From Gemmatimonadota bacterium (GTDB lineage: Bacteria > Gemmatimonadota > Gemmatimonadetes > Longimicrobiales > Gaopeijiaceae), in the NCBI GenBank assembly GCA_029879725.1, contig JAOUPR010000001.1, forward strand, positions 3,324-67,323: a DNA stretch of 64,000 nt. The letters run 5' to 3'. Positions 18,141 to 62,803 of the stretch are shown here, piece after piece. A program made the position numbers and the translations under genes. The number at the start of each line of letters is the position of its first letter. Position 1 is the stretch's first letter. Under the pieces are notes generated by a model that saw only the letters and a program-made list of their open reading frames with translations, had not been told where the DNA came from and did no database searches.

Positions 18141-19232
18141 TCAGTGCGTCCTCATGACCTCGAGGGTATTGGTGAGCACGGCCATGGCGTAGGCCGGATT
18201 GTGGATCCCGTGACTCAGATCCTCCTCGAACATCTGCCAGTTGGCGAACCCGGCCACCACGTCCGCCGGCCACGTGCCGGGAACGGCGTAGTGATCGACA
18301 CCCTGGATCCCGATGCGTTGGAGCTCCGTGGAGATGTCCGCGAGGAGTGTCGTGACCAACGTCTGCACGGTGTTGTGGTCGAAGGTCGTCAGGGGAACCG
18401 TGGTATGGCATCCGGTGCCGTTGCACCCCGCCACGTTCTCCTCCACCGCACCGTGATAGAGGTACGACATCTTCCACGTATGTCCGCCGGCCTGGCTGCC
18501 GAAAGCCTGGGCCATGTGACAGGTGCCGCACACCTCTGGGTTGCTGTCCGGGTCACCATGGACGGTAGGGCCACCGGCGATGACCCGCGATCCCGTGAAC
18601 TCGAACGCGCCCACTCCACCCACGACCTGGGCCTGCGGGCCGTGGTGGAAACCGTACCGGGACGAGGTGAGCGTAACGTCGGCACCCCCCAACTCGGGTA
18701 CGGGGCTGAGCACCCTGCCCTGATGGCACTGAGCGCACAGATTCCCCACGTCCGCCCCGTAGTCCACCGTCCCATGACCGGCGTTCCACAACTCCACGGG
18801 AGCCGTGGTGGTCAGGGCGAAGTCGGCGTCGGTGTAGGTCGTGTGGATCTGATGGCACGTCCGGCAATTGATGGGTGCGGGGTCAACGACGTTGGCGGCC
18901 GTGACCATCGCGCCCGTGGCGATCCGCTCGATGAAGCCCTGGTGGGTGTGACAGGGCGCGCAACTCGTGGTCGACCGCTCGAAATTCCCACCGAGCCTGT
19001 GCTTCGACTCGCCATACTGCACCTGCTTGGCGTACAGCGTCACGTCTTCGGTGTGGCACTGGGTGCAGTTCTCGTTGGCATCCTGTCCGGCCGGACCGGT
19101 CGGTCCGGCGGGGCCCTGGAGTCCCTGGGTGCCTTGTGGCCCGGCGGGCCCCGTCGGCCCCTCCGGGCCTTCGCATCCGGCACCGATGACGAGGGCCCCG
19201 ATGAACAGGAAGGCCCAACTGCGTCGTAACAT
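18141..19232 (-). CDS. Hexa-heme c-type cytochrome lipoprotein with N-terminal collagen-like (Gly-X-Y)10 tether
   Basis: 363 aa; signal peptide ending IGAGC; immediately followed by EGPEGPTGPAGPQGTQGLQGPAGPTGPAGQD (10 consecutive G-X-Y); heme motifs CTQCH, CAPCH, CRTCH, CAQCH, CGTCH plus a CX4CH (CNGTGCH); AGGGAGGG RBS 3 nt before the ATG. Confidence 0.8.
   Translation of the reverse strand: MLRRSWAFLFIGALVIGAGCEGPEGPTGPAGPQGTQGLQGPAGPTGPAGQDANENCTQCHTEDVTLYAKQVQYGESKHRLGGNFERSTTSCAPCHTHQGFIERIATGAMVTAANVVDPAPINCRTCHQIHTTYTDADFALTTTAPVELWNAGHGTVDYGADVGNLCAQCHQGRVLSPVPELGGADVTLTSSRYGFHHGPQAQVVGGVGAFEFTGSRVIAGGPTVHGDPDSNPEVCGTCHMAQAFGSQAGGHTWKMSYLYHGAVEENVAGCNGTGCHTTVPLTTFDHNTVQTLVTTLLADISTELQRIGIQGVDHYAVPGTWPADVVAGFANWQMFEEDLSHGIHNPAYAMAVLTNTLEVMRTH
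19080..19169 (-). repeat. Coding repeat: 10 uninterrupted Gly-X-Y triplets (collagen-like) inside the hexa-heme cytochrome gene
   Basis: Residues 22-51 of the 18141..19232 product; at DNA level an imperfect GGn-CCn 9-nt periodicity. Confidence 0.7.
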
Positions 19233-19490
19233 GTTTCCCTCCCTTGAAGAGTAGATGCTACTCGATCAGTGAGGAGGGTCTCGGCCCGGAATCCGGTAAT
19301 GGCAGGGAGGACAGGGGGAGTATACCGGCCGTCATGGCCGCGGCATGCACCTAATGGTACATTAATGGACGGGAGCGCGCTACCCCGATCTACGTAGTGT
19401 TACGGACCCTTCCCGAGGCACGGGATCCGTGGGATTACCCATCGGCGCACCTACTCCCATTCCCACCAGACCCTCCAGGTCGAAAAGCCC

Positions 19491-20180: not shown

Positions 20181-21194
20181 CTACCACACCCGGGTCACGC
20201 CGACCTGGAGTTGAAAGTCCAGGGACGGGCCGCGAGGCGGCACGTCCTCCTGGAGTGATGCCTCCCATCGCCACCCGTTACCCGCCCGACCCACCACGCC
20301 CACCACCAGGTCGGTCACGGCATGGTCCATGTCCGGATCGCCGAGCGGGCGGGTGAGCGGTGGGGAAGCCACGAACTGGATCACCCCACTCGCCCCCGGG
20401 CCGAGCGGCCGCTCCAGGGCCACGGCCAGAAGCCAACCCCACCCCCGGAGCACATCGCGCAACTCGGGAAGCGTCCGCACGGAGAACCCCTCCACCACAC
20501 CGTGCCCATGCCACCCTCTCCACTCCCTACGCGCCATGGCCGCGACGGCCACGTCGGCGCGCTCCGTCCCGAACGGATCGTCCACCATCGGGATCCGTGC
20601 GCTGACCCGGAATGACAAGACCCTCTGGCGGGAGACGTCCCGGAACACCCGCCACTTCCCGAACAGGCGCACCTCCGTGAGCGCCCACTCCCTCCTCGGC
20701 ACGGCCAACCGGAGCCTCCCCCGTGCATCGACGAACGTGACCTGGTGCTCACCATACGGGTATCGCTCGCGGAAGTGGTTCCCGAGTCCGAACGCGTTGT
20801 GGAAGCCCACGATGACCGGATCGAGGATCCCTCCGCCGGTGTTCTCCCACGCGGCCCGCACCCCGATCTCCACGCCCTTCCCCAGGCCGGCCCGGACGGT
20901 GGCGGACGCGATCAGCCGCTCCAGGTCCAGGACGACCTGGTGGGTGGCCGAGGAGTCGCGCTCGAAGATGTTGGCGTACGCGAACCAGAGGCTCGCCGAG
21001 ACGCCTGCGCCGGGGAGTACCTCCGCCGACTCCGTGACCCCCGTGTAACCGAGCCGCTGGAGGGGAGCACCCTCCTCGAAGGTGAGCGGACCCAGGGGGG
21101 TTCCCTGCCCCGCGGCGGGAGATTCCATGGGGGCGAACCCGACCGCCAGGGACGCCGCCCAGGCGACCGGCGGCGGCACCGCCGCGCGGGGCAC
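20181..21194 (-). CDS. Predicted outer-membrane beta-barrel (porin-like) protein, last gene of the cytochrome operon
   Basis: ORF 20181..21989 trimmed to a GTG 3 nt after the upstream cytochrome stop (VPRAAVPPPVAWAASLAVGFAP signal-like N-terminus); alternating amphipathic strands, Gly/aromatic-rich, C-terminal QLQVGVTRVW (terminal aromatic residue typical of OMPs). Confidence 0.6.
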   Translation of the reverse strand: MPRAAVPPPVAWAASLAVGFAPMESPAAGQGTPLGPLTFEEGAPLQRLGYTGVTESAEVLPGAGVSASLWFAYANIFERDSSATHQVVLDLERLIASATVRAGLGKGVEIGVRAAWENTGGGILDPVIVGFHNAFGLGNHFRERYPYGEHQVTFVDARGRLRLAVPRREWALTEVRLFGKWRVFRDVSRQRVLSFRVSARIPMVDDPFGTERADVAVAAMARREWRGWHGHGVVEGFSVRTLPELRDVLRGWGWLLAVALERPLGPGASGVIQFVASPPLTRPLGDPDMDHAVTDLVVGVVGRAGNGWRWEASLQEDVPPRGPSLDFQLQVGVTRVW

Positions 21195-21196
21195 GC

Positions 21197-22624
21197 CTAC
21201 CGTCCCACCACCGAACGGTGGAACGCGTCGTCCATCTCCTCCGACATGAACCGGGCCTCCAGCCTGTAGTGGCAATAGGAGCAGAAGCCGGGGCGGGGCG
21301 GGAGCCCGAAGTCCGGACGTGGCGGCACCGGGACCCCCGCCGCGGAGTAGGCGGCCGCCACTTCTTCGATACTCTGGTCGAGCATCTGGTGGGTGAGGAT
21401 GAGATTGTGGTAGGCGCCGCCCCTGTCCAGCAACCCCAACCGACGGCGGACATCCACCACGACCCCTTCCAGGGCCGAAGCCGGAAGGCGGACGTCCGCC
21501 GCCCCCAGGTACGCTTCCACCAGCGAGATCCGCTCGGCGATCCCCTCCTCCCACCACCGCAGCACGGTGTCGTATTCCCGGCCATGGCACCCCGTGCACG
21601 CGGATCCACTGCCCCGGGTCGCCACCCCGCCCCGGCCGGGCCTCTCGGCCGGCACATGGCACGAGCGGCAGGTCAGACCCTGGGTGAACTTGTGCGAGGG
21701 TGCCGAGAGCGGCATCCCATCCACCAGCCCCAGGAAGAGCCTTTGCGGCTCGGCATGCGTGTCGCGGTGGCACGCGATGCACGTCGCCGGATCGCGAAGG
21801 CCATACCCCAGCTCCACGTCGTGGGCGTGGTCGTGGCAGTCGGTGCAGCGAAGGTCCACGGCGGAGCTCATCGCCTGGATCCGGTGGGTGTCCGCCTCGT
21901 GGCACGTGCCGCACGACACCCCGGTGTGATCCGGATGAAGATCCTCGCCCAGCCCTGCCGCCGTGACGGCGCCGGCATTCGCGTGGCACCGGTCACACCG
22001 CTCCGCCGAAACCTCCCGGCTGGGACGCGACACGTCGAAATGGCACCGTACACATCCGCCCGACACCCAGGGGAGCCCCTGGTGCGGCACCGCGACTCCC
22101 TGACTCGTGGCCCCCTCGAACTCCAGATCCTGATGGCACACGCGGCACTCTTCCCCTCGAACTCCCGCCAGCTCCGACTCGTGGCACAACCCGCACGTCT
22201 CGGCTCCGGCCGTCAGGAGCCCGCCACCCTCCTCGTGGCGATGGCACCCCGCACACTCCACCGCGACCTGAGCCGAGTCACCGTGGGTCACGTGGTGGAA
22301 CTCCACCGTGACCATGGTCAGGCTCGAGCGCGGGGAGCGCCGGTGGCAGTCCCCGGAGACGCACGTCTCGCCCGGGACGGAGCCCCGAGCCCGGTCGGCG
22401 GTCTCGCCCCGATGGCACTCCGAGCAAGAGAGCTCCGCGTGCCCCGCGCCTGCTTCCATCGCGATCCCCGGACCCGACCGGACCTCCGCATCCGCCGGAT
22501 CGGCCTCCCGCGACACCGTGGGGTCGCAGGCCAGAGCCATCAGGGTCGCCGCGGACAGAACGGCGAGCCCACACCTTCGTGAATCGGCCCGGAAGGGCCG
22601 GATCAGCAGAACGTCACTGCCCAT
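21197..22624 (-). CDS. Multi-heme c-type cytochrome (12 CXXCH + 1 CX4CH)
   Basis: ORF 21197..23185 trimmed to Met at 22624 (MGSDVLLIRPFRADSRRCGLAVLSAATLMALACD; signal/lipobox-like); motifs CSECH, CVSGDCH, CAGCH, CGLCH, CRVCH, CVRCH, CDRCH, CGTCH, CTDCH, CIACH, CRSCH, CTGCH, CSYCH; start overlaps upstream cytochrome b gene by 22 nt. Confidence 0.8.
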   Translation of the reverse strand: MGSDVLLIRPFRADSRRCGLAVLSAATLMALACDPTVSREADPADAEVRSGPGIAMEAGAGHAELSCSECHRGETADRARGSVPGETCVSGDCHRRSPRSSLTMVTVEFHHVTHGDSAQVAVECAGCHRHEEGGGLLTAGAETCGLCHESELAGVRGEECRVCHQDLEFEGATSQGVAVPHQGLPWVSGGCVRCHFDVSRPSREVSAERCDRCHANAGAVTAAGLGEDLHPDHTGVSCGTCHEADTHRIQAMSSAVDLRCTDCHDHAHDVELGYGLRDPATCIACHRDTHAEPQRLFLGLVDGMPLSAPSHKFTQGLTCRSCHVPAERPGRGGVATRGSGSACTGCHGREYDTVLRWWEEGIAERISLVEAYLGAADVRLPASALEGVVVDVRRRLGLLDRGGAYHNLILTHQMLDQSIEEVAAAYSAAGVPVPPRPDFGLPPRPGFCSYCHYRLEARFMSEEMDDAFHRSVVGR

Positions 22625-23496
22625 AGGATCATTCCGATGAGGGCGATGCCCACGGCGAGAGCGGTGAATCCGAGGATCGCGGCCACCGTGGTGGCCCACC
22701 GTGACGGCGGCGGGGCGGGCGTGTCGGGGACCTCGTCCAGGGAAGGCGTCCGGTGGAGATTCTCCTTCACGCTCTCCATGACCTCCGGGTGCTCCTCCTC
22801 CATGTACTCGAGTGTGGCCCGCCCGGTGAAGATCACGGTGTCCAGCGGGAACTTCTCCGGCCTCAGGTGCACGTTGAAGAAGTGGACCGTGAAGATGAAT
22901 CCCGCTGCCAGCAGAGCCTCGTCGGCGTGGATGACCGTGGCCACGTTGAACGCCCACCCGGGGAGGAAGGCAGCGAAGAACTCGGGAAACCAGAGGACCA
23001 GCCCGGACCCTCCGATGATGGCCACTCCCCAGAACACGGCGAGGTAGTCGAACTTCTCCATGTAGGACCACCTCCGGAACGCCGGCTTCGGTCCGAAGCC
23101 GAGGAACCACCTGATCTGGTTCCAGAAGTCCACCACGTCCCTGGGCTGCGGCACCATGGAGTCGGGGCCCCAGAAGAGGCTCCACCGATCAGGACTGCGC
23201 ACGAACAACACGGCGACGTACCCGACGTGTGCCCCGAAGTAGAGGAAGGTCACGACGGCACCCACCCTGTGGAGGAAGCCGGCGCTTTCCACTCCTCCCA
23301 ACAGGGCCATGAGGGGCCCGGACCAGAAGGCACACGAGAACCTCAAGGGGAGGCCGGTGATCACCAGGAGGAAGAACGACACGATCACGGCCGCGTGGGT
23401 CCACCGGTGGAAGCGGTTGAAGCGCCACACGAAGGGGCCCCTCCCTCGGGCCGCGGCGTCGAGTGACACCGGGTCCCGCACCCTGCTCCCGTTCAT
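22603..23496 (-). CDS. Di-heme cytochrome b membrane subunit (FdnI/HydC/PhsC-like prokaryotic cytochrome b561)
   Basis: ORF 22603..23814 trimmed to MNGSRVRDP at 23496 (GAGGGAGGA RBS); N-terminal RFNRFHRWTHAAVIVSFFLL motif, 4-5 TM helices with conserved His (FLHRVGAV, TVIHADEALLAAGFIFTVHFFNVH); ATGA overlap with upstream cytochrome c stop. Confidence 0.75.
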   Translation of the reverse strand: MNGSRVRDPVSLDAAARGRGPFVWRFNRFHRWTHAAVIVSFFLLVITGLPLRFSCAFWSGPLMALLGGVESAGFLHRVGAVVTFLYFGAHVGYVAVLFVRSPDRWSLFWGPDSMVPQPRDVVDFWNQIRWFLGFGPKPAFRRWSYMEKFDYLAVFWGVAIIGGSGLVLWFPEFFAAFLPGWAFNVATVIHADEALLAAGFIFTVHFFNVHLRPEKFPLDTVIFTGRATLEYMEEEHPEVMESVKENLHRTPSLDEVPDTPAPPPSRWATTVAAILGFTALAVGIALIGMILWAVTFC

Positions 23497-24695
23497 GATC
23501 GATCCTCCCTCGTCCCGGTTCCCGCGCGCATGAGCCGTACTCCGTCGAGGGTGACCCGGAACAGCCAGAGTGCCGTGTGGAGGCCGAACACCGTGAACAC
23601 ACCCACGAGGAGCGCGGTCATGAAACGGTACGACCAGTAGACGTGGGGGTACCGCTCCCGGTCGGCGTGATCGGCATGTGGCTGGAATCCGGCGAAGTTC
23701 ACCGCGGCGCCGGGATGGCACGCGCGGCACGTCTTGAGAAGGTTCTCCTCGGACACGGACGAACGCGGATCTTCGGTGGCGTGGATCGAGTGTGCCGTGT
23801 GGCAGGCCTGGCACGTCGCCGCGCGACCGGACCCCAGCGTCGATGCCTGACCGTGATACGAGTCGGCGAAGCTCTCCCCGTATTCCTCATGGCACCCGGA
23901 GCACGCCGCCACCACGGACCGGCCGAAGACCGCGCCGTCCCCGGATACCGCCGGCATCCCGTGGGCTCCGTGACACGCGGTGCACCCCGGAGGGGCTGCG
24001 GGAGGGTGCCCCAGGTCGAATTCATCCAGTGACGTGCCCCCGTCGGGAGGCCCGGAAGTCTCGTTCACGGCCTCGCGGTGGGCGTCCCGCTCCCACTCCG
24101 CGGCCACCTGGTCATGGCACGTCCCGCACGTGGCGTGCTGGTTCAGAGGATGTACGCCCGCCTCGGGATCCCCGGGGGACCGGGTACCGTGGGCTTCGTG
24201 GCAGGCGGTACACGCCACAGAGTCCGCGTGCGGGTCCGACGCCGGCATGCGCGGCTCGAAGTGGCACGATACGCACGCGCCGTTCATCTCCCGGAGGCCC
24301 GGCGTCTCGCCGAGACCCGCGGAGGAGGCCACATCGTGAACCCCGTGGCACGACGCACACTCCGCCGCGGCGTCCACGGCGTGCACGCCTCCGCTCCACT
24401 CCGTGGCCGGGTCCGGGTGGCACTCGGCGCACGACGCCGTGGCGGCCGTCCCCGGGTGCGGGTAACGGCGATACCCCGAATGGCAGTCGGCACACCCTCG
24501 TTCGTCGTGAGCCGTGCCCCGCTGACCGACGGACGGAACCAGGAGCGCCGAGGCTTCTTCGAGCGTCTCGGTGTGCTGACGAAGGAACTCCAGCTCGGCG
24601 TGACACAGGTCGCACCGTCCCCCGGCCTGCTGAGCGTCCACGGAGGCGGCTCCGGCCAGACCCGCCATGCACACGACCACGTCCACGATTCTCAT
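23493..24695 (-). CDS. Undeca-heme c-type cytochrome with signal peptide and C-terminal transmembrane anchor
   Basis: 400 aa; signal MRIVDVVVCMAGLAGAASVDAQQ; eleven CXXCH (CDLCH, CADCH, CAECH, CASCH, CVSCH, CTACH, CGTCH, CTACH, CSGCH, CQACH, CRACH); C-terminal hydrophobic helix FMTALLVGVFTVFGLHTALWLF; ATG overlaps upstream regulator stop (ATGA). Confidence 0.8.
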   Translation of the reverse strand: MRIVDVVVCMAGLAGAASVDAQQAGGRCDLCHAELEFLRQHTETLEEASALLVPSVGQRGTAHDERGCADCHSGYRRYPHPGTAATASCAECHPDPATEWSGGVHAVDAAAECASCHGVHDVASSAGLGETPGLREMNGACVSCHFEPRMPASDPHADSVACTACHEAHGTRSPGDPEAGVHPLNQHATCGTCHDQVAAEWERDAHREAVNETSGPPDGGTSLDEFDLGHPPAAPPGCTACHGAHGMPAVSGDGAVFGRSVVAACSGCHEEYGESFADSYHGQASTLGSGRAATCQACHTAHSIHATEDPRSSVSEENLLKTCRACHPGAAVNFAGFQPHADHADRERYPHVYWSYRFMTALLVGVFTVFGLHTALWLFRVTLDGVRLMRAGTGTREDRS

Positions 24696-27631: not shown

Positions 27632-28798
27632 TCATGTGATCAGGAGAAGGGCGAGAAGCGCGGTGGCGTCCGCGGCCAGGGCGGCTCCGAACCCCTTCTT
27701 CCAGAAGAGGACTCCGAAGGCCACCGCCGGGACGGCGACACCCGCCAGGAGGAAGGCCACCGTACCCGTCCAATCCGGGAACCCGACGGCCAGGGCGCCG
27801 GGGGTGTAGAGCGCCACCTGCGACGCCGTCGCCACCAGTACCGCCACCACCGCCGCCTCTCCACCCTGCACCCGATGCCACCGCAGGAAGAGCCAGGCCA
27901 CGCCCGTCACCAGGACCAGGCGGAGGAGCACCTCGTCCACCAGTGCCTGGGCGACCTCCACCACCACGGCGCCGGCGCCGGGATGGCTCACGCCCGGCCC
28001 CACGAACGGGACCGCCATGAGCGCCACGACCAGACCGGTGACCGCCCCCACCACCACGTCACCCCCTTTCCATCCCGGGCGCACCAGCCCCACGCCCACC
28101 CCGGGGAATGGAAGCCGGTCCAGTAGCCGGAGCGCGAGCGTGACCGACGGCCCGACGACCCACACCGCCAGGATCGCCGCCAGGAGGATCGCCGCCGTCT
28201 CGGAGATCCGTAGACGGACCCCCCAGATCTCCGGCCGGTCGGCCAGGAAGATCAGGCTCAATGCCACCACCGTGCCCGCCACGAGCGCCGTGCCCACCCG
28301 GCGCTCCGGCCACCTCGCGAAGGCGTTCCCCACGGCCTTCCACGTGTGGACCGCGGCCACGCCCATCACCAGCACGGCCGCCATCCACCCCGCCGTCACG
28401 CCCACCAGCGGACCGGGCCTACCCAGATAGCTCGCGGGGACCGTCATGGCCACCCAGACCGCGATGAGCCACGCGACCGCCAGCGCGGGAATCGTATAGA
28501 GCATCGCCCGTCCCATGTCGGGCACGGCGGAGCGGAGGGAGAGCCCTTCGGGCCGTCCCAGGAGTCCCAGGACGATCCCGTGCACGCCACCGGCGAACGC
28601 CCCGATCAGGAACAGAGTGGTCGCGTCCAGGAAGAGGGCATGTGCGCTCAGGCGGCCCATCAGGGTCATCGCGGCCAGGAATACGCCCCCGAGCGCGATC
28701 CCGCCGGCCATGGATCCGAGGACGGCGACCCGCCCGTGGAGTCCGATACCCCGGAGAAGAATGCGGGGCTCTCGATGTTGGGTTTTCGGCGCGTTCAT
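27632..28798 (-). CDS. Polytopic integral membrane protein of unknown function (~10 TM), encoded directly upstream of the kinase-regulator-cytochrome operon
   Basis: ORF 27632..28849 trimmed to MNAPKTQHREPRI at 28798 (GGGAGGG RBS); Gly/Ala/Val/Leu-rich with 10+ hydrophobic segments; no family recognised. Confidence 0.55.
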   Translation of the reverse strand: MNAPKTQHREPRILLRGIGLHGRVAVLGSMAGGIALGGVFLAAMTLMGRLSAHALFLDATTLFLIGAFAGGVHGIVLGLLGRPEGLSLRSAVPDMGRAMLYTIPALAVAWLIAVWVAMTVPASYLGRPGPLVGVTAGWMAAVLVMGVAAVHTWKAVGNAFARWPERRVGTALVAGTVVALSLIFLADRPEIWGVRLRISETAAILLAAILAVWVVGPSVTLALRLLDRLPFPGVGVGLVRPGWKGGDVVVGAVTGLVVALMAVPFVGPGVSHPGAGAVVVEVAQALVDEVLLRLVLVTGVAWLFLRWHRVQGGEAAVVAVLVATASQVALYTPGALAVGFPDWTGTVAFLLAGVAVPAVAFGVLFWKKGFGAALAADATALLALLLIT

Positions 28799-28845
28799 GG
28801 TTCCCTCCCGTAGGGGTTCGGCCTGCGTGTTCGACCGACCAAGGA

Positions 28846-28860
28846 TCAACGAACGTGCCC
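28846..28860 (-). promoter_or_regulatory. Weak sigma-54-type (-24/-12) promoter candidate upstream of the membrane-protein gene
   Basis: Minus-strand GGGCACG-ttcg-TTGA (consensus TGGCACG-N4-TTGC; -24 GG and spacing match, -12 GC replaced by GA), ~47 nt upstream of the ATG at 28798. Confidence 0.2.
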
Positions 28861-29087
28861 ATTCCCCGCACCGTGCTCCAACTCGTTGATATCGTGTCGC
28901 TTACGGGACGCTCACGGACGGGGCGGGCGATCCGGGGGGGGGCGCCGGGCGCGCGTTTTCACGCACCTTCGCGCGCGGAATCGCCCGCCCTCGTGCACCC
29001 CGGGGCGTCGGACACGCACTCCTCCCGCACGAAGATCTTGAGATTTGAAGCGTAGCGATTAATCATTCACCACCGCGTCTCCTCCAG

Positions 29088-29120
29088 AGCGGCCGCCTGC
29101 GTCCATGCCTCACCGGGACG
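29088..29120 (+). repeat. Perfect 11-bp inverted repeat (stem-loop) in the intergenic region upstream of the SET-domain gene
   Basis: CGCCTGCGTCC-atgcctcaccg-GGACGCAGGCG; lies in a locally AT-richer island (~29031-29070: gaagatcttgagatttgaagcgtagcgattaatcattc) that may contain the SET-gene promoter. Confidence 0.3.
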
Positions 29121-29159
29121 CAGGCGTCGTTCGTATCACAGTTGGAGGGTCCCACTCCG

Positions 29160-29579
29160 TTGAGGGGAGCAGGGACCCGAGGCGAGAACCACGGCGTGCT
29201 TCGCGTGCCAACCTACGTAGCCCCCAGCTCCATCCAGGGAGTGGGACTGTTCGCTGCCGTCGACATCCCCGCAGGAACCACCATCTGGGAGTTCACTCCC
29301 GACGTCGACTGGCGGATCCCCTTGAAGGACATGCAACTCTTTCCCGAACCGTATCGCACGTGGCTTCTCCGCTATGTGTATCTGGACGAGTCGGGAGCGT
29401 ACGTGTTGTGTGGAGACAACGGGAAGTACATGAATCACTCTTTCGACCCCAACTGTGACGACGTGGAGGGCCCGTACACCGTGGCCCGCACGAACATCCG
29501 GGCGGGCGAAGAGTTGACGTGCGACTACCGTTTGTTCGACCTGGATTCCAAGAACAACGGGCTCCACGGCTACCTGTAG
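29160..29579 (+). CDS. SET domain-containing protein (putative protein-lysine N-methyltransferase)
   Basis: ORF 29142..29579; the 29142 codon itself is TTG, and the likely start is an in-frame TTG at 29160 (GGAGGG 9 nt upstream) or GTG at 29196. SET signatures GVGLFA...GTTIW near N-terminus and NHSFDPNC...EELTCDY C-terminal motif. Markedly more A/T-ending codons than neighbouring genes. Confidence 0.7.
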   Translation: MRGAGTRGENHGVLRVPTYVAPSSIQGVGLFAAVDIPAGTTIWEFTPDVDWRIPLKDMQLFPEPYRTWLLRYVYLDESGAYVLCGDNGKYMNHSFDPNCDDVEGPYTVARTNIRAGEELTCDYRLFDLDSKNNGLHGYL

Positions 29580-30571
29580 CCGGAGCCGGGGACGGGGTGG
29601 CGAGTCACCCCGTCCCCGACTCGACCCGTCTCGGGATTCAGGGCCTCGTACACTTCACGGGATATGGCGGCGATGAGACGCTCCGCCTCGTTGTCGTACG
29701 TCCAGGTCTGGTCTTCGTTCTCCTTCGTCATGACGCAGATGACGAAGTCCCGTGACGGGCCGTACACCACCCCACAGTCGTTCCGGGCCCGGTCCAGCGA
29801 TCCGGTCTTGTGCGCCACCGCCACCTCGGGCGGAAGCTCGCGCGGAATCCCCTCCCGGTAGAACTGCCGGGTCATGATGCCCAGCATCTTCTCGGACGCC
29901 TCCGCGTCCACCAGCTCCCCCCGGTAGAGCATGGTCAGGAGGGCGGCGATCTCCACCGGCGTCGTCACGCCGAGACCGAACGCCCGCGACGCCTCGGGAT
30001 CGAAGCTCTCCCCCGCGTTCGCATTGACGGGAAGGAAGATCCGGGTGTGCTCCAGACCGAGGGACCGCATGCGCTCGGTCACCTGCCTCGGGCGGAGCTT
30101 CTCCAGGAGAAGGTTCGTCGCCGTGTTGTCGCTGAGGGTGACCATCAGGAACACGGCGTCCCAGATGGTGAGCTCCCTGGGCGTGGAAAGGAACTGCAAC
30201 ACCCCCGAGCCGCCGGTCTGATCCAGTGCGAGGAGCGTCAGCGGGTCGTTCAGGGAGAGCGAGCCCTCGCGAACGCGGGCGAACGCATCCACCATCACGC
30301 CCAGCTTCACCAGGCTGGCCGATGGGAACTCTTCGTCGCCCATGATGCTGAAGGAGTCTCCGTTCACCGGATCCACCACGGCCAGTCCGACGACGCCGTG
30401 ATGTTGCGCGATGAGTCCGGAGATCCGGGACCGGATGGACTCGAGGAATTGTGAGGGAGGGCCGTGGGCCGAGGCCTGCAGTGGAACGGCCGCCCCGAGA
30501 AGAATCCATGAGGCAAGGACCGTATGAAGGGAGGAGGGTCGACGACGCGACGCGCTCGTGAAGAATCGCAT
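29570..30571 (-). CDS. Class A beta-lactamase-family serine hydrolase, secreted
   Basis: ORF 29570..30637 trimmed to MRFFTSASRRRPSSLHTVLASWILLGAAVPLQASA (signal peptide); active-site motifs SASLVK (S-x-x-K), SDN (LSDNTATN), KTG (AHKTGS); 3' end overlaps the SET gene 3' end by 10 nt (convergent). Confidence 0.75.
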   Translation of the reverse strand: MRFFTSASRRRPSSLHTVLASWILLGAAVPLQASAHGPPSQFLESIRSRISGLIAQHHGVVGLAVVDPVNGDSFSIMGDEEFPSASLVKLGVMVDAFARVREGSLSLNDPLTLLALDQTGGSGVLQFLSTPRELTIWDAVFLMVTLSDNTATNLLLEKLRPRQVTERMRSLGLEHTRIFLPVNANAGESFDPEASRAFGLGVTTPVEIAALLTMLYRGELVDAEASEKMLGIMTRQFYREGIPRELPPEVAVAHKTGSLDRARNDCGVVYGPSRDFVICVMTKENEDQTWTYDNEAERLIAAISREVYEALNPETGRVGDGVTRHPVPGSGYR

Positions 30572-30715: not shown

Positions 30716-31327
30716 TTGCTGTCCATCTACGTCTTCAGCCTCGTGCTCGGAGGAGGATTGCTCCTCCTGTCCCTCTTCGGCGACGCCGTGGGCGACGGTC
30801 TCGACGGCGACCTCGGGGTGGACATCGACCTCGACGCGGACCTCGACGTGGATCTCGACACCGACGTCGACACCGGGCCGGGGCTCGCGCCGAAGCTCTT
30901 TTCCCTCCGCATGTTCACGTACATGCTCTTCGGTTTCGGAGCCGTGGGCGAGGTGCTCTCCTGGGTGGGATTCGATCCGGCGGGCATCACCACCATCGGC
31001 CTGTCCGCCATGGGAGCGGTCGCCGCGGGAGTGATGGTCCAGACCGTGTTCCGCTACCTGGACGCCACGGACTCGGGAGCGCACCCCGGAGAGGGCAGCC
31101 TGGTGGGCCTGGCGGGTCGCGTCACCATCCCCATCACCGCCGCTTCACCCGGGAGCATCGTGGTTCACCGGGGAGACCGGCGACTCACCCTGCGCGCGCT
31201 CCCGTACGAAGGAGAGAGCGACCCGGGGGGATGGCACTCCGTGGTCATCGTGGAGATGGATCGCGGCGTGGCGCGCGTAACACCCATCAAGGACGAGTAC
31301 TCCGTCGAGAACGACTCGACGTACTGA
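30716..31327 (+). CDS. NfeD-like membrane protein (OB-fold C-domain), partner of flotillin
   Basis: 203 aa; N-terminal TM, acidic DxDxD low-complexity linker, two further TM helices, C-terminal beta-rich domain (GRVTIPITAASPGSIVVHRGDRRLTLRALPYEG). Confidence 0.75.
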   Translation: MLSIYVFSLVLGGGLLLLSLFGDAVGDGLDGDLGVDIDLDADLDVDLDTDVDTGPGLAPKLFSLRMFTYMLFGFGAVGEVLSWVGFDPAGITTIGLSAMGAVAAGVMVQTVFRYLDATDSGAHPGEGSLVGLAGRVTIPITAASPGSIVVHRGDRRLTLRALPYEGESDPGGWHSVVIVEMDRGVARVTPIKDEYSVENDSTY

Positions 31328-31349: not shown

Positions 31350-32651
31350 ATGCAGGGACTCCCCGAATACCTCGTAGGACCGGCCACCCTGGCCCTGGTG
31401 GTCATCGCCGTGCTGATCGTTCTGGTGATGACCGTCAAGGCGCTCATCGTGATCGTCCCCCCCAACCGGGCCTCGGTCATCACCGGACGCACGCGTACGC
31501 TGAGTGACGGCCAGCGCGTGGGATACCGTTCCGTGATCGGCGGACGCACGCTCCGGATTCCCGTGGTGGAATCCGTCCAGTTCATGAATCTGGAGACCTT
31601 CGCCATCGAGATCTCGGTGCACAATGCGTTCTCCAAGGGGAACATCCCCCTCAACGTGGAGGCCATCGCCAACGTGAAGCTGGCCTCCGATCCGGAGACG
31701 GTGTTCAACAACGCGGTCGAGCGTCTCCTGGGGAAGACCGAAGGGGAGATCCAGCAGCTCGCCAAGGACACGCTGATGGGAAACCTCCGCGGCGTCCTGG
31801 CCACGCTGACGCCGGAAGAGGTGAACGAAGACCGCCTCGGCTTCGCCAAGGCCCTGGCGGAAGACGCCGGAGAGGACCTGGCGGCCCTCGGCTTCCATCT
31901 GGACGTGCTCAAGATCCAGAACGTGAGCGACGAACGGGGATACCTCGAGGCCATCGGACGCAAGAAGGCCGCCGAGGCCGTCCGTGAGGCCGAAATCGCG
32001 GAGGCCAACGCGGAAGCGGATACCCGGGAAGCTCAAGCGGACGCCCGGCAGCGGGCGGAGATCCGGGAAGCCGGGGCGAACATCAAGATCGCCGAGGCCA
32101 ACAACCAGCTCCGGGTGCGCCAGGCCGAACTCGACCAGGAAGCCGAGATCGCCGAGAAGACGGCCAAGGTTCGCGCCGAAGAAGCCAAAGTTGAGGCCGA
32201 GCGCGCCCTCGAGGCCAAGCGTGTCCAGCGCGAGACCGAACGCCTACGCGCCGACGTCATCGAGCCGGCCAACGCGGATCGCGACGCGGCCCTCGCCCGG
32301 GCCGAGGGAGACGCCGCCCCCATCCTGGAACGAGGCAAGGCCCAGGTGGAGGTCCTCCGGCGCCTGTACGAGCAGGTGCAGACGGGGGGAGATCAGGCCT
32401 TCGCCGTCTTCCTGGCCGAGAAGCTCCCCGATCTCCTGGAGATCGCGGTGGGCGCCATCGAAGGGGTCGACATCGACCGCGTGGTGGTCATGGACGGGGG
32501 AGACGGGAACGGCGTGAGCAACGCGGTGAACCAGAAGGTGAAAGGCGCCTTCGGCACCATGGAAGGGCTGGCGTCCGCCCTGGGTTTGGACATCCAGGAG
32601 GTCCTGGCCAACGCCGTGGCGCGCATCCCCGCGAAGGCCACGACCGAATAG
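31350..32651 (+). CDS. Flotillin-like SPFH/band-7 protein (FloT/YqiK type)
   Basis: 433 aa; N-terminal membrane hairpin, SPFH domain (RTLRIPVVESVQFMNLETFAIEISVHNAFSKGNIPLNVEAIANVKL), long Ala/Glu-rich coiled-coil flotillin repeats (EAEIAEANAEADTREAQADARQRAEI...). Confidence 0.85.
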   Translation: MQGLPEYLVGPATLALVVIAVLIVLVMTVKALIVIVPPNRASVITGRTRTLSDGQRVGYRSVIGGRTLRIPVVESVQFMNLETFAIEISVHNAFSKGNIPLNVEAIANVKLASDPETVFNNAVERLLGKTEGEIQQLAKDTLMGNLRGVLATLTPEEVNEDRLGFAKALAEDAGEDLAALGFHLDVLKIQNVSDERGYLEAIGRKKAAEAVREAEIAEANAEADTREAQADARQRAEIREAGANIKIAEANNQLRVRQAELDQEAEIAEKTAKVRAEEAKVEAERALEAKRVQRETERLRADVIEPANADRDAALARAEGDAAPILERGKAQVEVLRRLYEQVQTGGDQAFAVFLAEKLPDLLEIAVGAIEGVDIDRVVVMDGGDGNGVSNAVNQKVKGAFGTMEGLASALGLDIQEVLANAVARIPAKATTE

Positions 32652-32678
32652 TGCACCGGCGGGCGATCCCGGGAGGGC

Positions 32679-33029
32679 TCAAGCCTCCCGGGATCGCCTC
32701 GTCCTGGGGTCGTCGCCGCCCCGGACGATCTGTTCGATCTGCCCGAGCATGGTGGCGGTTCCCGCCTTGCTGGCCCCGAAGAGGCCGTCCTCGGTGTGAT
32801 CCAGCCCCTCCACCACCGAATGGAGGTTGAGCCACAGGTCGAGGCGCTCACTCATCCGCAGGACGGAGTAGAAGAAGCGCGGGCGCTTGCCCCTCCCCAT
32901 GAAGAAGTCCACCACCACCGCGACGATGGAGAGGTTGAACACCAGGACGTCCTTGAGGCCATCGAGGACGAGCTTGAACTGGAAGATGGTGAAATCCCGA
33001 AAGGTGACTCCACGGGTTGCGACGGTCAT
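32679..33029 (-). CDS. Hypothetical small membrane protein (116 aa)
   Basis: ORF 32679..33071 trimmed to MTVATRGVTFRDF (GAGGGAG RBS); one hydrophobic helix LVFNLSIVAVVVDFFM; convergent with flotillin gene. Confidence 0.45.
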   Translation of the reverse strand: MTVATRGVTFRDFTIFQFKLVLDGLKDVLVFNLSIVAVVVDFFMGRGKRPRFFYSVLRMSERLDLWLNLHSVVEGLDHTEDGLFGASKAGTATMLGQIEQIVRGGDDPRTRRSREA

Positions 33030-34508: not shown

Positions 34509-34817
34509 AGCGAAAATCCCTTTCGACTGGTGAAGAAACCCGTATTTGTCCTGGAGAAGACCGGAACGTACTCCCACCCCGTCATTCCAGCAACGACGGC
34601 ACGCTCTCTCACCAAGATAGCCCAATCAGGGGCTGCACGGGACGCCGACGGGCGGCGACGGCGACGCTCCGCGAGGCCGTGATGGTCCCGATAACCCTCC
34701 GAGGATCTCTCGTGCGAGCCATGCACGCAGCCGTCGAGGTTCCCTGAAATCGAGGGAGGTCCGGCCGTGGGATACCGGCCGGACCTCCCTTCATGGGTCA
34801 TCCAGTTGTCGTGCCCG

Positions 34818-59799: not shown

Positions 59800-59877
59800 C
59801 GCTCCGGATTCCGGGGCGGGAAAAGCGGGTCGGGATGTGGTCGGCAAGAACCCCAAGCCGAGGAATGACCGAAACGG

Positions 59878-60738
59878 ATGTTCTCAACCTCGCGCGGCCT
59901 CGATTCCTTCGATCAGTATCTGCAGGACGTGGAGAAGTATCCACTGATCCAGGATCCACAGGAAGAAAGGGAGTTGGCTCGACGGGCCCGGCAGGGTGAC
60001 AAGGAAGCTGCCGAGCGCCTGGTCACCGCCAACCTCCGCTTCGTCATCTCCTACGTGAAGAAGTACCAGGGTCGTGGGCTGGGACTCGCGGAACTGGTCT
60101 GTATCGGGAACGAAGGGCTGCTGAAGGCGGTCAAGAAGTTCGATCCCGACAAGGGCGTGAAGTTCATCTCGTACGCCGTATGGTGGATTCGCCAAACGGT
60201 GCTGCAGGCTCTGGCCGAGCAGACGAGATCCGTCCGGATTCCGCTCAACCAGAACTCGAACCTGGCCCGGCTGGCTCGTACCGATACGATGCTCACCCAG
60301 TCGCTGGGGAGATCCCCTACCGACCAGGAGATCGCGGACGAGATGGGTGAGCCCGTGGACACGGTGAGGGCGCTCCGCAGAGTGGCGGCCGCGGAACTGA
60401 GCCTCGACGCCCCCATCGATCGCGGGGATCGCGACAGCGCGTCCTTCGGGGAGCGGTTCGCCGGCGTGGACTCCTCCGACATCGAAGAGGATGTGGAATT
60501 CGCGGCCCGTCGTGAGTTCCTCGAAGGAATGTTCGAGGAGTATCTCACCGAACGGGAGCGCAAGATCCTCTACCTGTACTACGGACTCGACGACGGTGAG
60601 GAGCGGACCCTGGAGGAGATCGGATCGCTTCTCGGAGTGACCCGGGAACGCATCCGCCAGATCCGGAACCGTGCATTCGAGAAGCTCCGTGAGAGCCCTC
60701 ACGGTGACTCTCTCTCCGGTTTCTGGAACGCGAACTGA
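59878..60738 (+). CDS. rpoD: Primary-type RNA polymerase sigma-70 factor, short Bacteroidetes-like form lacking region 1.1
   Basis: 286 aa; near-identical block order to Bacteroidetes SigA: LDKYLQ..., ANLRFV.S..K.YQ..GL.L.DL...GN.GL.KA..KFD...G.KFISYAVWWIRQ..LQALAEQ.R.VR.P, region 4 LEEIG...G.TRERIRQI...A..KLR. Confidence 0.8.
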   Translation: MFSTSRGLDSFDQYLQDVEKYPLIQDPQEERELARRARQGDKEAAERLVTANLRFVISYVKKYQGRGLGLAELVCIGNEGLLKAVKKFDPDKGVKFISYAVWWIRQTVLQALAEQTRSVRIPLNQNSNLARLARTDTMLTQSLGRSPTDQEIADEMGEPVDTVRALRRVAAAELSLDAPIDRGDRDSASFGERFAGVDSSDIEEDVEFAARREFLEGMFEEYLTERERKILYLYYGLDDGEERTLEEIGSLLGVTRERIRQIRNRAFEKLRESPHGDSLSGFWNAN

Positions 60739-60766
60739 CGCTTCCCCGACGACGCGGCGGTTCGGG

Positions 60767-62803
60767 ATGATGCGCAAAGACCCTGTCCATCCGGGCAGGG
60801 TCTTTGCATGGGTGACGGTCCTCTCCGCACTGCTCGCCCCCGCGGCGGCGGCACAGGAGGTGAACTCTTCGGCGGCCCTGGACCTGGTACGGCGAGGCCG
60901 CGACCTGCGACGATCTTCGGTACAGGACTCCACCTTCGGCCGGTACAGCGCCCGGGCCACGGGAAACGTCTACTTCCTCCTCGACCGACCCGACACCGAC
61001 GAGCGGACGCTGGTCAAGGCGGACCAGGTGGCGCTGGACATCTACTGGCGCGCTCCGAACCGGACCCACCAGCGCATCGTCGGGCTCCGGGACCGCAAGA
61101 CGCTTCCCACCAACATCCACTACCACCTGGATCACCTCACCGTGGTCCAGGACGACTTCGGGGACCGCATCCGCCTGGGCGACGGCGACGAGGTATCCTC
61201 CGTTCCGCATCCCCTCGCGCCTGGCGCGGAATCGGTCTACGACTACACCCTCACGGATTCCCTCACCGTGGGATACGGCTCGTCGGGCGAGATCGTGCGG
61301 GTGTACGAGATCGAGGTCCGGCCCCGTGAGATGGATCAGCCGGGATTCCTGGGCTCCATCTACCTGGACCGGGCGTCCGCCGCCGTGGTACGCATGCGGT
61401 TCACCTTCACACCGGCATCGTACATGGACCGGCGCCTCGACTACATCCGGATCTCCCTGGACAACTCCCTCTGGATGGGGCGCCACTGGTTGCCGTACCG
61501 CCAGGAAGTGGAGATCCGGCGGGAGATCCCCGCGCTGGACTTCGTGGCGGGGAGCGTGATCCAGGGCCATTACGAGATCCGAGGCTACGACTTCGACACT
61601 CCGGCGCCGGACCGTTTCTTCCTGGGCCCCGCCGTGTCCATGGCACCCCAACACGAGCGGGATGCCTTCGCGTTCTCCGAAGAGCTCCTGGCGGGGGTGG
61701 AAGGAGGGGGACTCTCCACCCCGGAGGCGCTGGTGGAGGTGCGAGCCCGGCTTTCCGACGTGGCGCGTCGTCGCTACCTGAGCGGGCTGAACCCTCACCG
61801 CCTGTACTTCGAGCGTGCCTCGGAGGTGATCCGGTATGACAGGGCCGAAGGTCTCCATCTGGGAGGCGGTGTACGCTTCCAACCGGCTCCAACCCTGGTG
61901 GCCCGCCTGACCGGCGGGTACGCCTTCGGGGCCGGAGATCCATCGGGGAGGGTGTCCCTCGTCCACGCGGGCGCCACCGGCCCCCAGGCGACCCTGACGG
62001 CGTCGTGGAACCGGATGCGGGACATGGGCCCCCACCCGGGCGCATCTCCCTCGGTGAACACGCTGTCGTCCGTCCTGCTGAGACAGGATTTTCTCGACCC
62101 GTACTTCGTCCGGGGGCTGGAGCTGTCCCTGGCGGGGTCGGGGCGAGCACGCTCGCCCCGCCTGACCGTCCGATGGGAACAACACGCCTCGGCCCGGACG
62201 TGGATGGCCGATCCCGGTTCCTTCAGGCCCCTCGCGCCCGTGGACGAGGGACGCCTCACCGCGCTGGACGGCCGGCTCCCCGTGCACCTCCCCGGAGGGG
62301 GGAAGGGTGACCTGTCGGCCACCCTGGGGCGCATGGAGGGGCGTGCCACCTTCAGGACGGCGGAGGCCCGGGCGTCCTGGGCACACGCCTCCCTGGAGGG
62401 GGGATGGTCCCTTCGCGGGGACGTTTCCGGCGGGATCGCCGGTGGGGGGGTGCCCGCTCAGGCGCTCTTCCTCCTGGGCGGACGAAACACTCTCCCGGGG
62501 CACCCCTACCGCGGAAGCGTGGGGGACGCCTACTGGCTGGTCCGGGGCGAAGCCGGGATCCCCGTGGCGGGCCCGTGGGTCGGGCTACGCACCTTCGCGG
62601 CGCTCGGGCGCACGCACCTGCGTGCCCATGAGCCCCCGGCCGGGTGGACGTCCGTTCCCGCACGAGGCGTGTCCGCCTCGGTGGGCGGCGGAGTCGCGCT
62701 GGGGTGGGACGTCCTCCGCATGGATGTGGCCCGCGGCCTGGGGGCAGGAGGGGGGTGGGAGGCACGCTTCACCGTGAATCCGCGCTTCCATCCCTGGCTC
62801 TGA
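60767..62803 (+). CDS. Hypothetical large exported protein (678 aa)
   Basis: ORF 60671..62803 trimmed to MMRKDPVHPGRVFAWVTVLSALLAPAAAAQ; beta-rich, Gly-rich C-terminal half suggests an outer-membrane/secreted protein; a 652-aa antisense ORF on the minus strand is Arg/Pro/Gly-rich and is rejected. Confidence 0.5.
   Translation: MMRKDPVHPGRVFAWVTVLSALLAPAAAAQEVNSSAALDLVRRGRDLRRSSVQDSTFGRYSARATGNVYFLLDRPDTDERTLVKADQVALDIYWRAPNRTHQRIVGLRDRKTLPTNIHYHLDHLTVVQDDFGDRIRLGDGDEVSSVPHPLAPGAESVYDYTLTDSLTVGYGSSGEIVRVYEIEVRPREMDQPGFLGSIYLDRASAAVVRMRFTFTPASYMDRRLDYIRISLDNSLWMGRHWLPYRQEVEIRREIPALDFVAGSVIQGHYEIRGYDFDTPAPDRFFLGPAVSMAPQHERDAFAFSEELLAGVEGGGLSTPEALVEVRARLSDVARRRYLSGLNPHRLYFERASEVIRYDRAEGLHLGGGVRFQPAPTLVARLTGGYAFGAGDPSGRVSLVHAGATGPQATLTASWNRMRDMGPHPGASPSVNTLSSVLLRQDFLDPYFVRGLELSLAGSGRARSPRLTVRWEQHASARTWMADPGSFRPLAPVDEGRLTALDGRLPVHLPGGGKGDLSATLGRMEGRATFRTAEARASWAHASLEGGWSLRGDVSGGIAGGGVPAQALFLLGGRNTLPGHPYRGSVGDAYWLVRGEAGIPVAGPWVGLRTFAALGRTHLRAHEPPAGWTSVPARGVSASVGGGVALGWDVLRMDVARGLGAGGGWEARFTVNPRFHPWL

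Follow-up and report, generated by a model that had tools for sequence, protein, structure and literature searches.

Positions 29038–29622 of a 64,000-nucleotide stretch of the genome of a Gemmatimonadota bacterium (GenBank assembly GCA_029879725.1, contig JAOUPR010000001.1, positions 3,324 to 67,323; this whole stretch is hereafter called the window) quite probably represent a self-contained, single-gene transcription unit that is native to Gemmatimonadota and in which a structured RNA leader controls the gene for a minimal SET-domain enzyme. The gene itself is an ordinary member of a large, known family of bacterial SET proteins. The leader, apparently an undescribed conserved RNA with helices P0, P1, an optional P2 and P3, was found in 23 distinct loci with differing neighbours, as a single copy per locus that has the orientation of SET and extends to its start codon. 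The components of the predicted unit in the window are the following.

29038–29066, + strand: promoter-like sequence, TTGAGA (−35 box, 29038–29043), a 17-nt spacer and AATCAT (−10 box, 29061–29066)
29073–29092, + strand: predicted leader helix P0, CCGC-G-TCT / AGA-GCGG with the loop CCTCC, abutting P1
29094–29126, + strand: predicted leader helix P1, 11-bp stem CGCCTGCGTCC / GGACGCAGGCG, loop with CCTCA at 29108–29112
29127–29146, + strand: linker TCGTTCGTATCACAGTTGGA, T-rich directly past P1, occupying the position of P2
29147–29178, + strand: predicted leader helix P3, GGGTCCC...GGGACCC, loop with TGAGG at 29161–29165
29179–29195, + strand: purine-rich, Shine-Dalgarno-like tract GAGGCGAGAA (29179–29188) and spacer, directly 3' of P3
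29196–29579, + strand: gene for the SET-domain protein, 127 amino acids (aa), GTG start, TAG stop (29577–29579)
29583–29622, no strand assigned: GC-rich hairpin that starts 4 nt past the SET stop, in the last codons of the convergent gene

A minimal SET protein and the layout of its upstream region

The 127-aa product is 100% identical to a database protein (P0001), and its start at the GTG at 29196 is supported by the family N-terminus MLRVPTxVAPSxIxGVGLFA, which is common to all 27 aligned members and is preceded, in the same alignment, by residues without any protein-level conservation. A preliminary description of this DNA had placed the start at 29031, where the codon is GAA and an in-frame TGA follows at 29046–29048. 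From 29049 up to the GTG, the SET frame lacks stops, and the longest open reading frame (ORF) in this frame, from a TTG at 29142 to the TAG ending at 29579, comprises 145 aa. The core of that description, a lysine methyltransferase-like SET gene with intact catalytic motifs, is borne out by profile, alignment and predicted fold. The ORF ending at 29579 contains the motifs YMNHSFDPNC and GEELTCDY as well as the N-terminal GVGLFA (GxG), and the Pfam SET profile (PF00856) matches it with 51.9 bits, against a gathering cut-off of 22.4 (E = 1.1e-13, profile positions 1–104 of 105), whereas no NCBIfam model fits this protein. Thus, the N-terminal GxG, the NHS and the C-terminal ELTCDY with the catalytic tyrosine are all present, and G17, N80, H81, E106, L107, D110 and Y111 are invariant among the 27 family members, with G15 nearly so. 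The protein has NHSF where NHSC is usual, and three cysteines (C72, C87 and C109) are invariant in the family.

A sequence search of the Protein Data Bank (PDB) with the SET protein retrieves the SET domains of MLL2/3/4, MLL1 and SETD2 (best E = 4e-7), with the motifs aligned to YINHSCxPNC and GEELTYDY of the MLL domains, at an identity to solved SET domains of merely 22–30%. An AlphaFold2 model built on the 27-sequence alignment yielded, in a Foldseek comparison with the PDB, 356 matches at E ≤ 0.001, all of them SET domains. The top matches were MLL1-4, SETD2, ASH1L, NSD1/2, SETD8 and Set7 of Schizosaccharomyces pombe, with a probability of 1.00 and TM scores of 0.55–0.71, and the best mutual coverage was obtained with Set7 (5h6z; TM 0.66–0.68 by query length and 0.68–0.72 by target length). 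The protein opens straight with the first SET strand (MLRVPTYVAPSSIQGVGLFA) and terminates 15 residues past the catalytic tyrosine; in the alignment and the model, it has no pre-SET or post-SET region, signal peptide, nuclear localisation signal or added domain. From these features, we infer that the product is a cytoplasmic protein lysine methyltransferase dependent on S-adenosylmethionine (SAM), with both activity and substrate predicted. This minimal enzyme would bind SAM via GxG and NH, with the catalytic tyrosine in ELTCDY, and would methylate lysine on one of the bacterium's own proteins. PADLOC matched no defence system, and the PHROGs comparison gave a single weak match (E = 0.006). 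Some relatives of 270–330 aa (for example, P0248, P0258, P0264, P0267 and P0271) produce two or three separate matches to the query and, by sequence, look like tandem duplications of the SET domain within one polypeptide.

The AT-rich upstream region mentioned in the preliminary description is indeed prominent, the segment 29026–29070 (GC content 0.40–0.44) being the lowest-GC 45-mer of the entire window. A promoter consensus scan upstream of SET found one site, with 0.2 expected, and in homologous loci, TTGAA(A/G)-N17-TAGCTA or TATTGT boxes precede P0 by the same distance. Judging by these boxes, the AT-rich patch is the SET promoter, and a sigma-70-type promoter here would start the RNA at about 29072, the predicted transcription start. 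The 11-bp hairpin noted previously, which is perfect, was located at 29094–29104 / 29116–29126 and corresponds to P1. Strong perfect hairpins (stem ≥ 11 bp, loop ≤ 12 nt) number five distinct cases in the 64 kb, against 0.57 ± 0.88 in first-order Markov simulations, so that the one upstream of SET is not a chance occurrence; two of the five flank SET.

In most Gemmatimonadota SET loci, a stable hairpin lies 65–130 nt ahead of the start codon, despite differing upstream genes. The layout shared by these leaders consists of the promoter boxes, P0, P1 with the loop CCGCCUCGCCGG, the optional P2, P3 (GGGNCCC...GGGNCCC) with the loop CGACGAGGGG and the purine tract. P0 varies in sequence between loci (mean fold z-score −1.5); when the 36 nt preceding P1 are folded to minimum energy, the structure terminates, in each of the 23 leaders, in a hairpin that directly adjoins P1. 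P2 is a variable GC hairpin, present in most relatives and, according to the leader alignment, missing in the window and in five other loci of the leader-bearing clade (L003, L009, L002, L169 and L020), which, together with the window and except for L020, located elsewhere in that clade, form one subclade of the protein tree. The purine tract reads rAAGAGyG in relatives, with the start codon about 10 nt further on, and is a putative ribosome-binding site.

Conservation and possible role of the leader

A plain MAFFT alignment of 19 leaders, analysed with RNAalifold, recovered P1 and P3 in part, and 13 of the 17 pairs contain compensatory changes. The covariance model was built from this alignment, which had not been fitted to a prior model. 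Over 0.9 Mb of SET loci, it matched at E ≤ 1e-5 the 19 seed leaders alone, each match ending at a SET ATG or GTG. Four distinct non-seed SET loci, fetched through exact protein look-up, carry the leader in the same place (L176, 5e-13; L180, 1.3e-12; L173, 5.2e-12; L169, 1.3e-3), and about 0.75 Mb of control sequence, comprising 85 loci anchored on the flotillin gene and the beta-lactamase-related gene of the window, contained no leader at E ≤ 1. No leader at E ≤ 0.01 was found, either, at more distant SET genes (L023, L025 and L027–L088, including Rhodothermales, Herpetosiphon and Hyphomicrobium), and visual inspection of ten distant SET upstream regions revealed no convincing leader.

In the model-guided alignment of the 23 leaders, 85.4% of the cells are paired (shuffles, 72.0 ± 0.9%), both partners have changed in 26 of 34 pairs (shuffles, 16.1 ± 1.9), and the covariation score is 0.394, compared with 0.173 for shuffled alignments and at most 0.158 for slid registers. 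None of 500 shuffles reached any of five covariation measures, and the true structure beat every slid register. Across the 23 loci, 87.7% of the P1 cells are paired and 7 of the 8 outer pairs of P1 have changed on both sides; the corresponding values for the outer helix of P3 are 92.4% and 5 of 7 pairs. Insertions and deletions of 1–2 nt separate close leaders (for example, 1 nt between L017 and L021), which would break any reading frame, so the leader is not coding. For the window alone, the fold z-score of the leader is modest (−1.98; 7 of 200 shuffles as good).

The leader resembles no RNA family that we searched for. Rfam 15 (4227 models) gave no match at gathering thresholds across the whole window and none at E ≤ 1 over 28800–29700; at E ≤ 10, there were unrelated sub-threshold matches only, which differed between the leaders of the window and L021. 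In the literature, no description of a SET-associated RNA motif was found. Among viral contigs of IMG/VR, the pattern GCCTCGCCGG-N40–70-GACGAGGGG matched 22; the covariance model rejected all of these as chance matches (E ≥ 0.19, off the pattern positions). The one locus of the leader clade in which the covariance model detects no leader, L031 (5820–6003), has a TTGACG box and a CGCCTCGAC element, and may carry a diverged or degraded leader.

The loops of P1 and P3 are complementary to each other, most commonly as CCUCG(CC) with (GG)CGAGG, and the complementarity covaries: the window has CCUCA:UGAGG, L003 has CCUCGG:CCGAGG, L017 and L021 have CCUCGCA:UGCGAGG, L009 has CCUCCCCG:CGGGGAGG, and L002 has CCCCAGCG:CGCUGGGG. 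The own-locus complementarity was equalled in 1 of 5000 random re-pairings of loops between loci, and counted by column, 83% of the loop-loop helix is paired and three of its pairs have changed at both positions. From these sequence comparisons, a kissing contact between P1 and P3 is supported but not proven, a grade chosen because a 5-nt match is near the chance level.

Several considerations weigh against the reading of this locus as a leader-controlled unit native to the phylum. The 23-sequence alignment was fitted to the model, and many of the 23 leaders are related, so that the shuffle counts overstate the significance. For GC-rich loops, a match of 5 nt differs little from the shuffled mean of 4.3 ± 1.05, and the case for the loop-loop helix hangs on a handful of covarying variants. 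Both the leader RNA and the transcription start are predictions, and the purine tract is a weak Shine-Dalgarno sequence, 8–17 nt from the GTG. The confidence of the SET model is moderate (pLDDT 79, pTM 0.63), with a pLDDT below 50 for the C-terminal 15 residues. The absence of a conserved SET neighbour (see below) deprives us of a pointer to the substrate. Finally, an older transfer between members of Gemmatimonadota may have occurred, given that synteny is lost at this divergence.

With these points taken into account, the leader still probably controls the SET gene. The first roughly 125 nt of the transcript would fold into P0, P1 and P3, with the P1 loop CCUCA paired to the P3 loop UGAGG, and the leader would respond to a signal, for which a metabolite, the SET enzyme, its substrate or temperature could serve, by gating SET translation. 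Because P3 ends at the ribosome-binding tract, the leader most likely sets access to the start region, its fold steadied by the contact between P1 and P3. The CCUC of the P1 loop is anti-Shine-Dalgarno-like and the GAGG of the P3 loop is Shine-Dalgarno-like, suggesting that this contact could imitate ribosome binding or compete with it. P1 is followed by a UCGUUCGU-like sequence in roughly 10 of the 23 leaders, that of the window among them; these leaders may instead, or in addition, gate transcription read-through as a weak attenuator.

We tentatively entertain the idea that the leader defines a new RNA class, either a riboswitch or an element responsive to a protein, that specifically serves a bacterial SET lysine methyltransferase. 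In that case, these free-living bacteria would switch protein lysine methylation by a specific cellular signal, and the ligand or partner of the leader would reveal the purpose of the enzyme. The narrower proposal, that the leader is a metabolite-binding riboswitch, with SAM and S-adenosylhomocysteine (SAH) as candidate ligands that would steady the P1–P3 contact and so toggle SET translation, appears somewhat unlikely. The leader does have the general appearance of a riboswitch: it is a multi-helix element of 125–160 nt with conserved loop nucleotides and variable stems, is found at a fixed site before one gene family across an order- to phylum-level radiation, displays tertiary-type loop-loop pairing that covaries, and terminates at the ribosome-binding tract. 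However, it is unlike every Rfam 15 family, all SAM and SAH classes included; its few conserved unpaired positions are mostly accounted for by the loop-loop pairing, which leaves little obvious ligand pocket; P2 is dispensable; and in the roughly 1.7 Mb searched, the leader is located only upstream of SET, so that a clue to a ligand from another gene family is lacking. The same picture would be expected of an RNA thermometer, of a small-RNA target or of a leader bound by a protein, with SET or its substrate as the autoregulator.

Origin and surroundings of the SET gene

The statement in the preliminary description that bacterial SET proteins are rare is outdated. In a scan of one genome per species of the Genome Taxonomy Database (GTDB), relatives of the window SET are encoded in at least 511 species. 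Searched exhaustively with phmmer, 1.84 billion cluster representatives (50% identity) yielded 1,027 SET clusters at E ≤ 1e-10, mostly of 120–140 aa and aligned from residue 1. Reviews, in agreement, count SET genes in more than 500 bacterial genomes, free-living species included, and argue against a purely eukaryote-to-bacterium origin of bacterial SET. The best 18 of the at least 511 genome matches (75–60% identity) all belong to Gemmatimonadaceae, Gemmatimonadales or Longimicrobiales, that is, to Gemmatimonadota; these are followed, among the matches listed, by Rubricoccaceae, other Rhodothermales, Herpetosiphon, Nevskia, Hyphomicrobium, Acidobacteriota and others.

Neighbour joining of 86 SET proteins, without support values, places the 23 leader-bearing genes in one clade, with L031 as the sole leaderless member. 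The window SET is nested inside this clade, where it groups with L003, L009, L002 and L169, and every named member of the clade is an uncultured Gemmatimonadota metagenome-assembled genome (MAG). Leaderless SET genes of Gemmatimonadota are found in neighbouring clades, intermixed with Rhodothermales, and the deeper history of the family may involve paralogy or transfer. The clade of leader-bearing genes is the strongest argument that the window SET gene has long resided in Gemmatimonadota as one module with its predicted promoter, leader and 3' hairpin. The closest database relatives are similarly distant for SET (76% identity), the beta-lactamase-related gene (70%) and flotillin (85% in a partial match, 81% over most of the length), which indicates that the organism is poorly sampled; the source-named best relatives of the beta-lactamase-related protein are labelled Gemmatimonadota or Longimicrobiales.

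The preliminary description favoured horizontal acquisition, on the grounds of a conspicuously low GC content at third codon positions (GC3), the AT-rich patch and the hairpin, and envisaged a possible effector role. Recent horizontal acquisition of SET is not supported. The GC3 of the gene (0.802) is below that of each of the eight adjacent genes (0.82–0.87), and this part of the claim stands, but the value is not atypical: among 39 frame-checked genes of the window (pooled GC3 0.848, mean 0.851, sd 0.034, minimum 0.768), four are lower. The GC3 expected from the SET amino acids is 0.849, which gives z = −1.53 against an among-gene spread of z of 1.92, and nine of the 39 genes have an equal or lower z. 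The codon log-likelihood is lowish (P = 0.054; z = −1.94) and equally low in seven of the 39 genes, and 11.7% of the 127-codon windows in other genes have a GC3 as low as that of SET. Hence, in the comparison with the genome that had itself been proposed as a check, the gene falls within the normal range.

The total GC content of the gene, 0.60, is 8 points under that of the window (~68%), a deficit that resides in codon positions 1 and 2 (GC1 0.58, GC2 0.41). It is due to the amino acid composition of the protein, which, compared with the window genes, has little Ala (5.6% vs 10.8%), much Tyr (7.1% vs 2.0%) and more Asn, Asp and Cys. Across 61 homologous loci, the total GC of SET is below that of its neighbours in 87%, and the GC3 of SET follows the host GC3 from 0.22 to 1.0 (r = 0.93). 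The lowered total GC is a trait of the SET family.

Synteny around SET has largely dissolved; it is kept between the close SET-bearing genomes L002 and L169. The closest homologues are flanked by unrelated genes, the neighbours present in the window are absent beside SET in more than 80 loci, and all-against-all clustering of the ORFs around more than 80 SET loci revealed no recurrent partner gene; the largest non-SET neighbour cluster has six members, from closely related loci such as Hyphomicrobium genomes. Four homologues of the beta-lactamase-related gene (62–67% identity) occur in unrelated contexts without SET. In 80 metagenome loci anchored on flotillin (47–85% identity), the NfeD-flotillin pair is mostly kept where the contig reaches upstream, and no beta-lactamase-related gene, SET or 405-aa membrane protein is found within 10 kb. 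The entire left flank, including the beta-lactamase-related gene, the membrane protein and the kinase, is missing from these loci, which points to a synteny break rather than an insertion of SET. The gene neighbourhood in the window comprises a two-component system, the membrane protein, the serine hydrolase, NfeD-flotillin, NMO, peptidase M28 and a TonB receptor. Sixteen surrounding ORFs were scanned with Pfam (at about 12.8–20.2, 22.6–23.9, 26.0–39.8 and 59.9–60.7 kb), and none matched a mobile-element or secretion-system family; flanking direct repeats were not specifically sought. The 64-kb window contains no tRNA genes.

It is therefore very unlikely that SET is a recently acquired foreign gene, perhaps encoding a secreted effector that methylates host histones. 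Such an origin would account for the low values of GC3, total GC and codon log-likelihood, for the neighbours that differ in every relative examined, for the lack of SET near the NfeD-flotillin pair in the flotillin-anchored relatives and for the intermixing of different phyla deeper in the SET tree. Against this origin stand the findings described above, namely, the ordinary GC3, a family-wide GC deficit confined to codon positions 1 and 2, the Gemmatimonadota affiliation of both the best genome matches and the whole leader-bearing clade, the absence of tRNA genes from the window and of mobile-element matches from the scanned ORFs, and the loss of the whole left flank, not of SET alone, from the flotillin-anchored loci. 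The AT-rich patch and the hairpin, taken previously for marks of foreign DNA, appear instead to be conserved pieces of the gene's own promoter and leader, shared by homologous loci, and a bare 127-aa SET core, with neither signal nor further domain, lends no support to an effector role. Low GC, an AT-rich patch and a hairpin beside a 'eukaryote-like' gene need not mean horizontal transfer. One 76%-identical SET protein (P0013) carries the label of Thioalkalivibrio sp. (Gammaproteobacteria), which would fit a transfer between phyla; because its contig is a MAG contig of only 2,974 bp, mis-binning is the likely cause. P0013 groups with proteins from long contigs (L169) that are syntenic with L002, the SET gene of which belongs to the Gemmatimonadota leader clade: in both L002 and L169, the gene order is abhydrolase, SET, NmrA and DUF5777, and the two SET proteins are roughly 87% identical, as read off the alignment. 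Thus, P0013 is probably a mis-binned contig rather than a case of inter-phylum transfer.

The idea that the upstream hairpins lack any RNA function, whether as accidental GC-rich inverted repeats, as a DNA operator or repeat element, or as a stretch of an extended coding frame (145 aa from TTG 29142, or from 29031), can draw on the open frame upstream of the GTG, the N-terminal extensions annotated on some database homologues, the modest fold z-score and the many stems that arise in GC-rich genomes, but is hardly credible given that pairing is kept in 23 loci while the stems vary in sequence (which a protein-binding operator would have kept), that small indels between close leaders destroy the frame, that the MLRVPT N-terminus is invariant and the residues before it are unconserved as protein, and that, unlike a dispersed repeat, the element is present once per SET locus, on the SET strand, and nowhere in the controls.

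Downstream, SET converges on a gene whose last 10 nt overlap it (29570–29579).

29570–30571, − strand: gene for a secreted serine hydrolase related to class A beta-lactamases, 333 aa with the ATG of the JGI gene call as start (Pfam Beta-lactamase2, 7.7e-58)

The class A beta-lactamase fold ascribed to this neighbour is upheld by the Pfam match, and the protein has a signal-like N-terminus and invariant SxxK, SDN and KTG columns; yet, the NCBIfam class A model scores 118.7 bits, below its cut-off of 200, which makes 'class A beta-lactamase-related serine hydrolase' the safe name. Fourteen homologues stop 0–11 residues past the conserved ...VYExLNP, and the window protein adds 20 non-conserved residues, the longest tail among the 15 proteins. 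Since this tail is not conserved and runs through the hairpin 3' of SET, the overlap is a by-product of a late stop codon. The overlap reported previously is real, and a second convergent gene pair in the window has the same layout (see below). The hairpin itself has arms of 17 nt (29583–29599 / 29606–29622) with a perfect 13-bp core (29587–29599 / 29606–29618) and a fold z-score of −4.41, a stability that none of 200 shuffles attained. It resembles a terminator lacking a T-run, and several relatives also have a hairpin after the SET stop. Starting 4 nt past the SET stop codon, it would end or stabilise the SET transcript, and the convergent gene would read through it to the first stop encountered, producing the 10-nt overlap.

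The other three strong perfect hairpins of the window lie outside the SET locus. A perfect 15-bp GC hairpin at 32662–32698 (GGCGATCCCGGGAGG / CCTCCCGGGATCGCC) lies where the flotillin gene (stop at 32651) and orf138 (stop at 32679–32681) converge, with its 3' arm within the final codons of orf138, the same layout as in the SET pair. Shared hairpins that overlap the 3' ends of coding regions seem to be a habit of this genome. The hairpins at 34753–34790 (15 bp), between the NMO-like and peptidase M28 genes, and at 60774–60807 (12 bp), 36 nt past the stop of a sigma-70 gene (59869–60738), are terminator-like without a T-run; given the position of the latter, the long ORF at 60641–62803 must begin downstream of it.

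Several further observations concern genes around SET. The gene at 27632–28849 (− strand), divergent from SET, encodes the 405-aa multi-pass membrane protein, for which Pfam, NCBIfam and PADLOC all gave no match. The intergenic stretch that separates these two genes contains, ahead of the SET promoter and towards the membrane-protein gene, a perfect 11-nt inverted repeat, GGGCGGGCGAT ... ATCGCCCGCCC (28921–28931 / 28980–28990), with a 48-nt spacer, which could be an operator or a leader part of the membrane-protein gene. The 203-aa gene before flotillin (30716–31327, + strand), without a Pfam or NCBIfam match, owes its NfeD-like label to position alone; most of the 80 related loci nevertheless have it directly ahead of flotillin. 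Farther away, on the − strand, are a multihaem cytochrome c-like gene (18141–19265; weak Cytochrome_C7 and MtrC/MtrF matches) and a gene with a cytochrome b561-like stretch (22603–23886). In the about 2.4 kb between them (20181–22600), long overlapping ORFs compete, none of which passed the filter of GC3 > 0.75 and GC2 < 0.60.

Comparison with known SET proteins and leader RNAs

A known minimal SET enzyme is vSET of Paramecium bursaria chlorella virus, a dimeric protein of 119 aa that acts on H3K27 and is also cited in a review. Like vSET, as described, and S. pombe Set7 (5h6z), the window SET is a lone core of ~120–130 aa, without pre-SET or post-SET regions and with the GxG, NH and ELxxDY motifs; unlike these minimal enzymes, it has a dedicated structured leader. 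In a host without histones, the substrate must differ from those of enzymes of the vSET/Set7 type.

According to reviews, the bacterial SET proteins whose activity has been described are all effectors of pathogens and act on host histones. These nucleomodulins, such as NUE and cpnSET of Chlamydia, RomA/LegAS4 of Legionella, BtSET of Burkholderia and BaSET of Bacillus anthracis, are bacterial SET proteins with presumably the same chemistry as the window protein. They come from host-associated bacteria, are exported by type III or type IV secretion or by other routes, and have targeting signals or extra domains (reviews). The window protein, in contrast, is a bare core, the 16 scanned neighbours include no secretion match, and the named members of its clade are uncultured Gemmatimonadota MAGs. 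The contig that encodes it derives from a JGI metagenome. Stand-alone SET proteins are widespread in free-living bacteria (at least 511 species, more than 1,000 clusters at 50% identity), for which we found no characterised SET substrate in the literature. As to what these enzymes do for the cell itself, the conserved leader of one SET clade offers an experimental handle, the signal that it senses being likely tied to the role of the enzyme.

A precedent for a prokaryotic SET protein acting on its own DNA-associated protein is Go1-SET of the archaeon Methanosarcina mazei, which methylates the chromatin protein MC1-alpha (Manzur and Zhou 2005, through a review). By analogy, and with the comparison made by description rather than by sequence, our working model is that the window SET would target the same class of substrate, a DNA-associated protein of the bacterium itself. 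A difference is that no gene for MC1 or another candidate substrate is linked to the Gemmatimonadota SET.

For the leader, the closest comparison is with the guanidine-II (mini-ykkC) riboswitch, a cis-regulatory leader that uses a loop-loop ('kissing') contact between two hairpins. Like guanidine-II, the window leader has two predicted hairpins with complementary, covarying loops just ahead of the start codon. Unlike guanidine-II, it has long loops (9–12 nt, with 5–9 bp of complementarity), the extra helices P0 and, in most relatives, P2, and a protein methyltransferase gene downstream.

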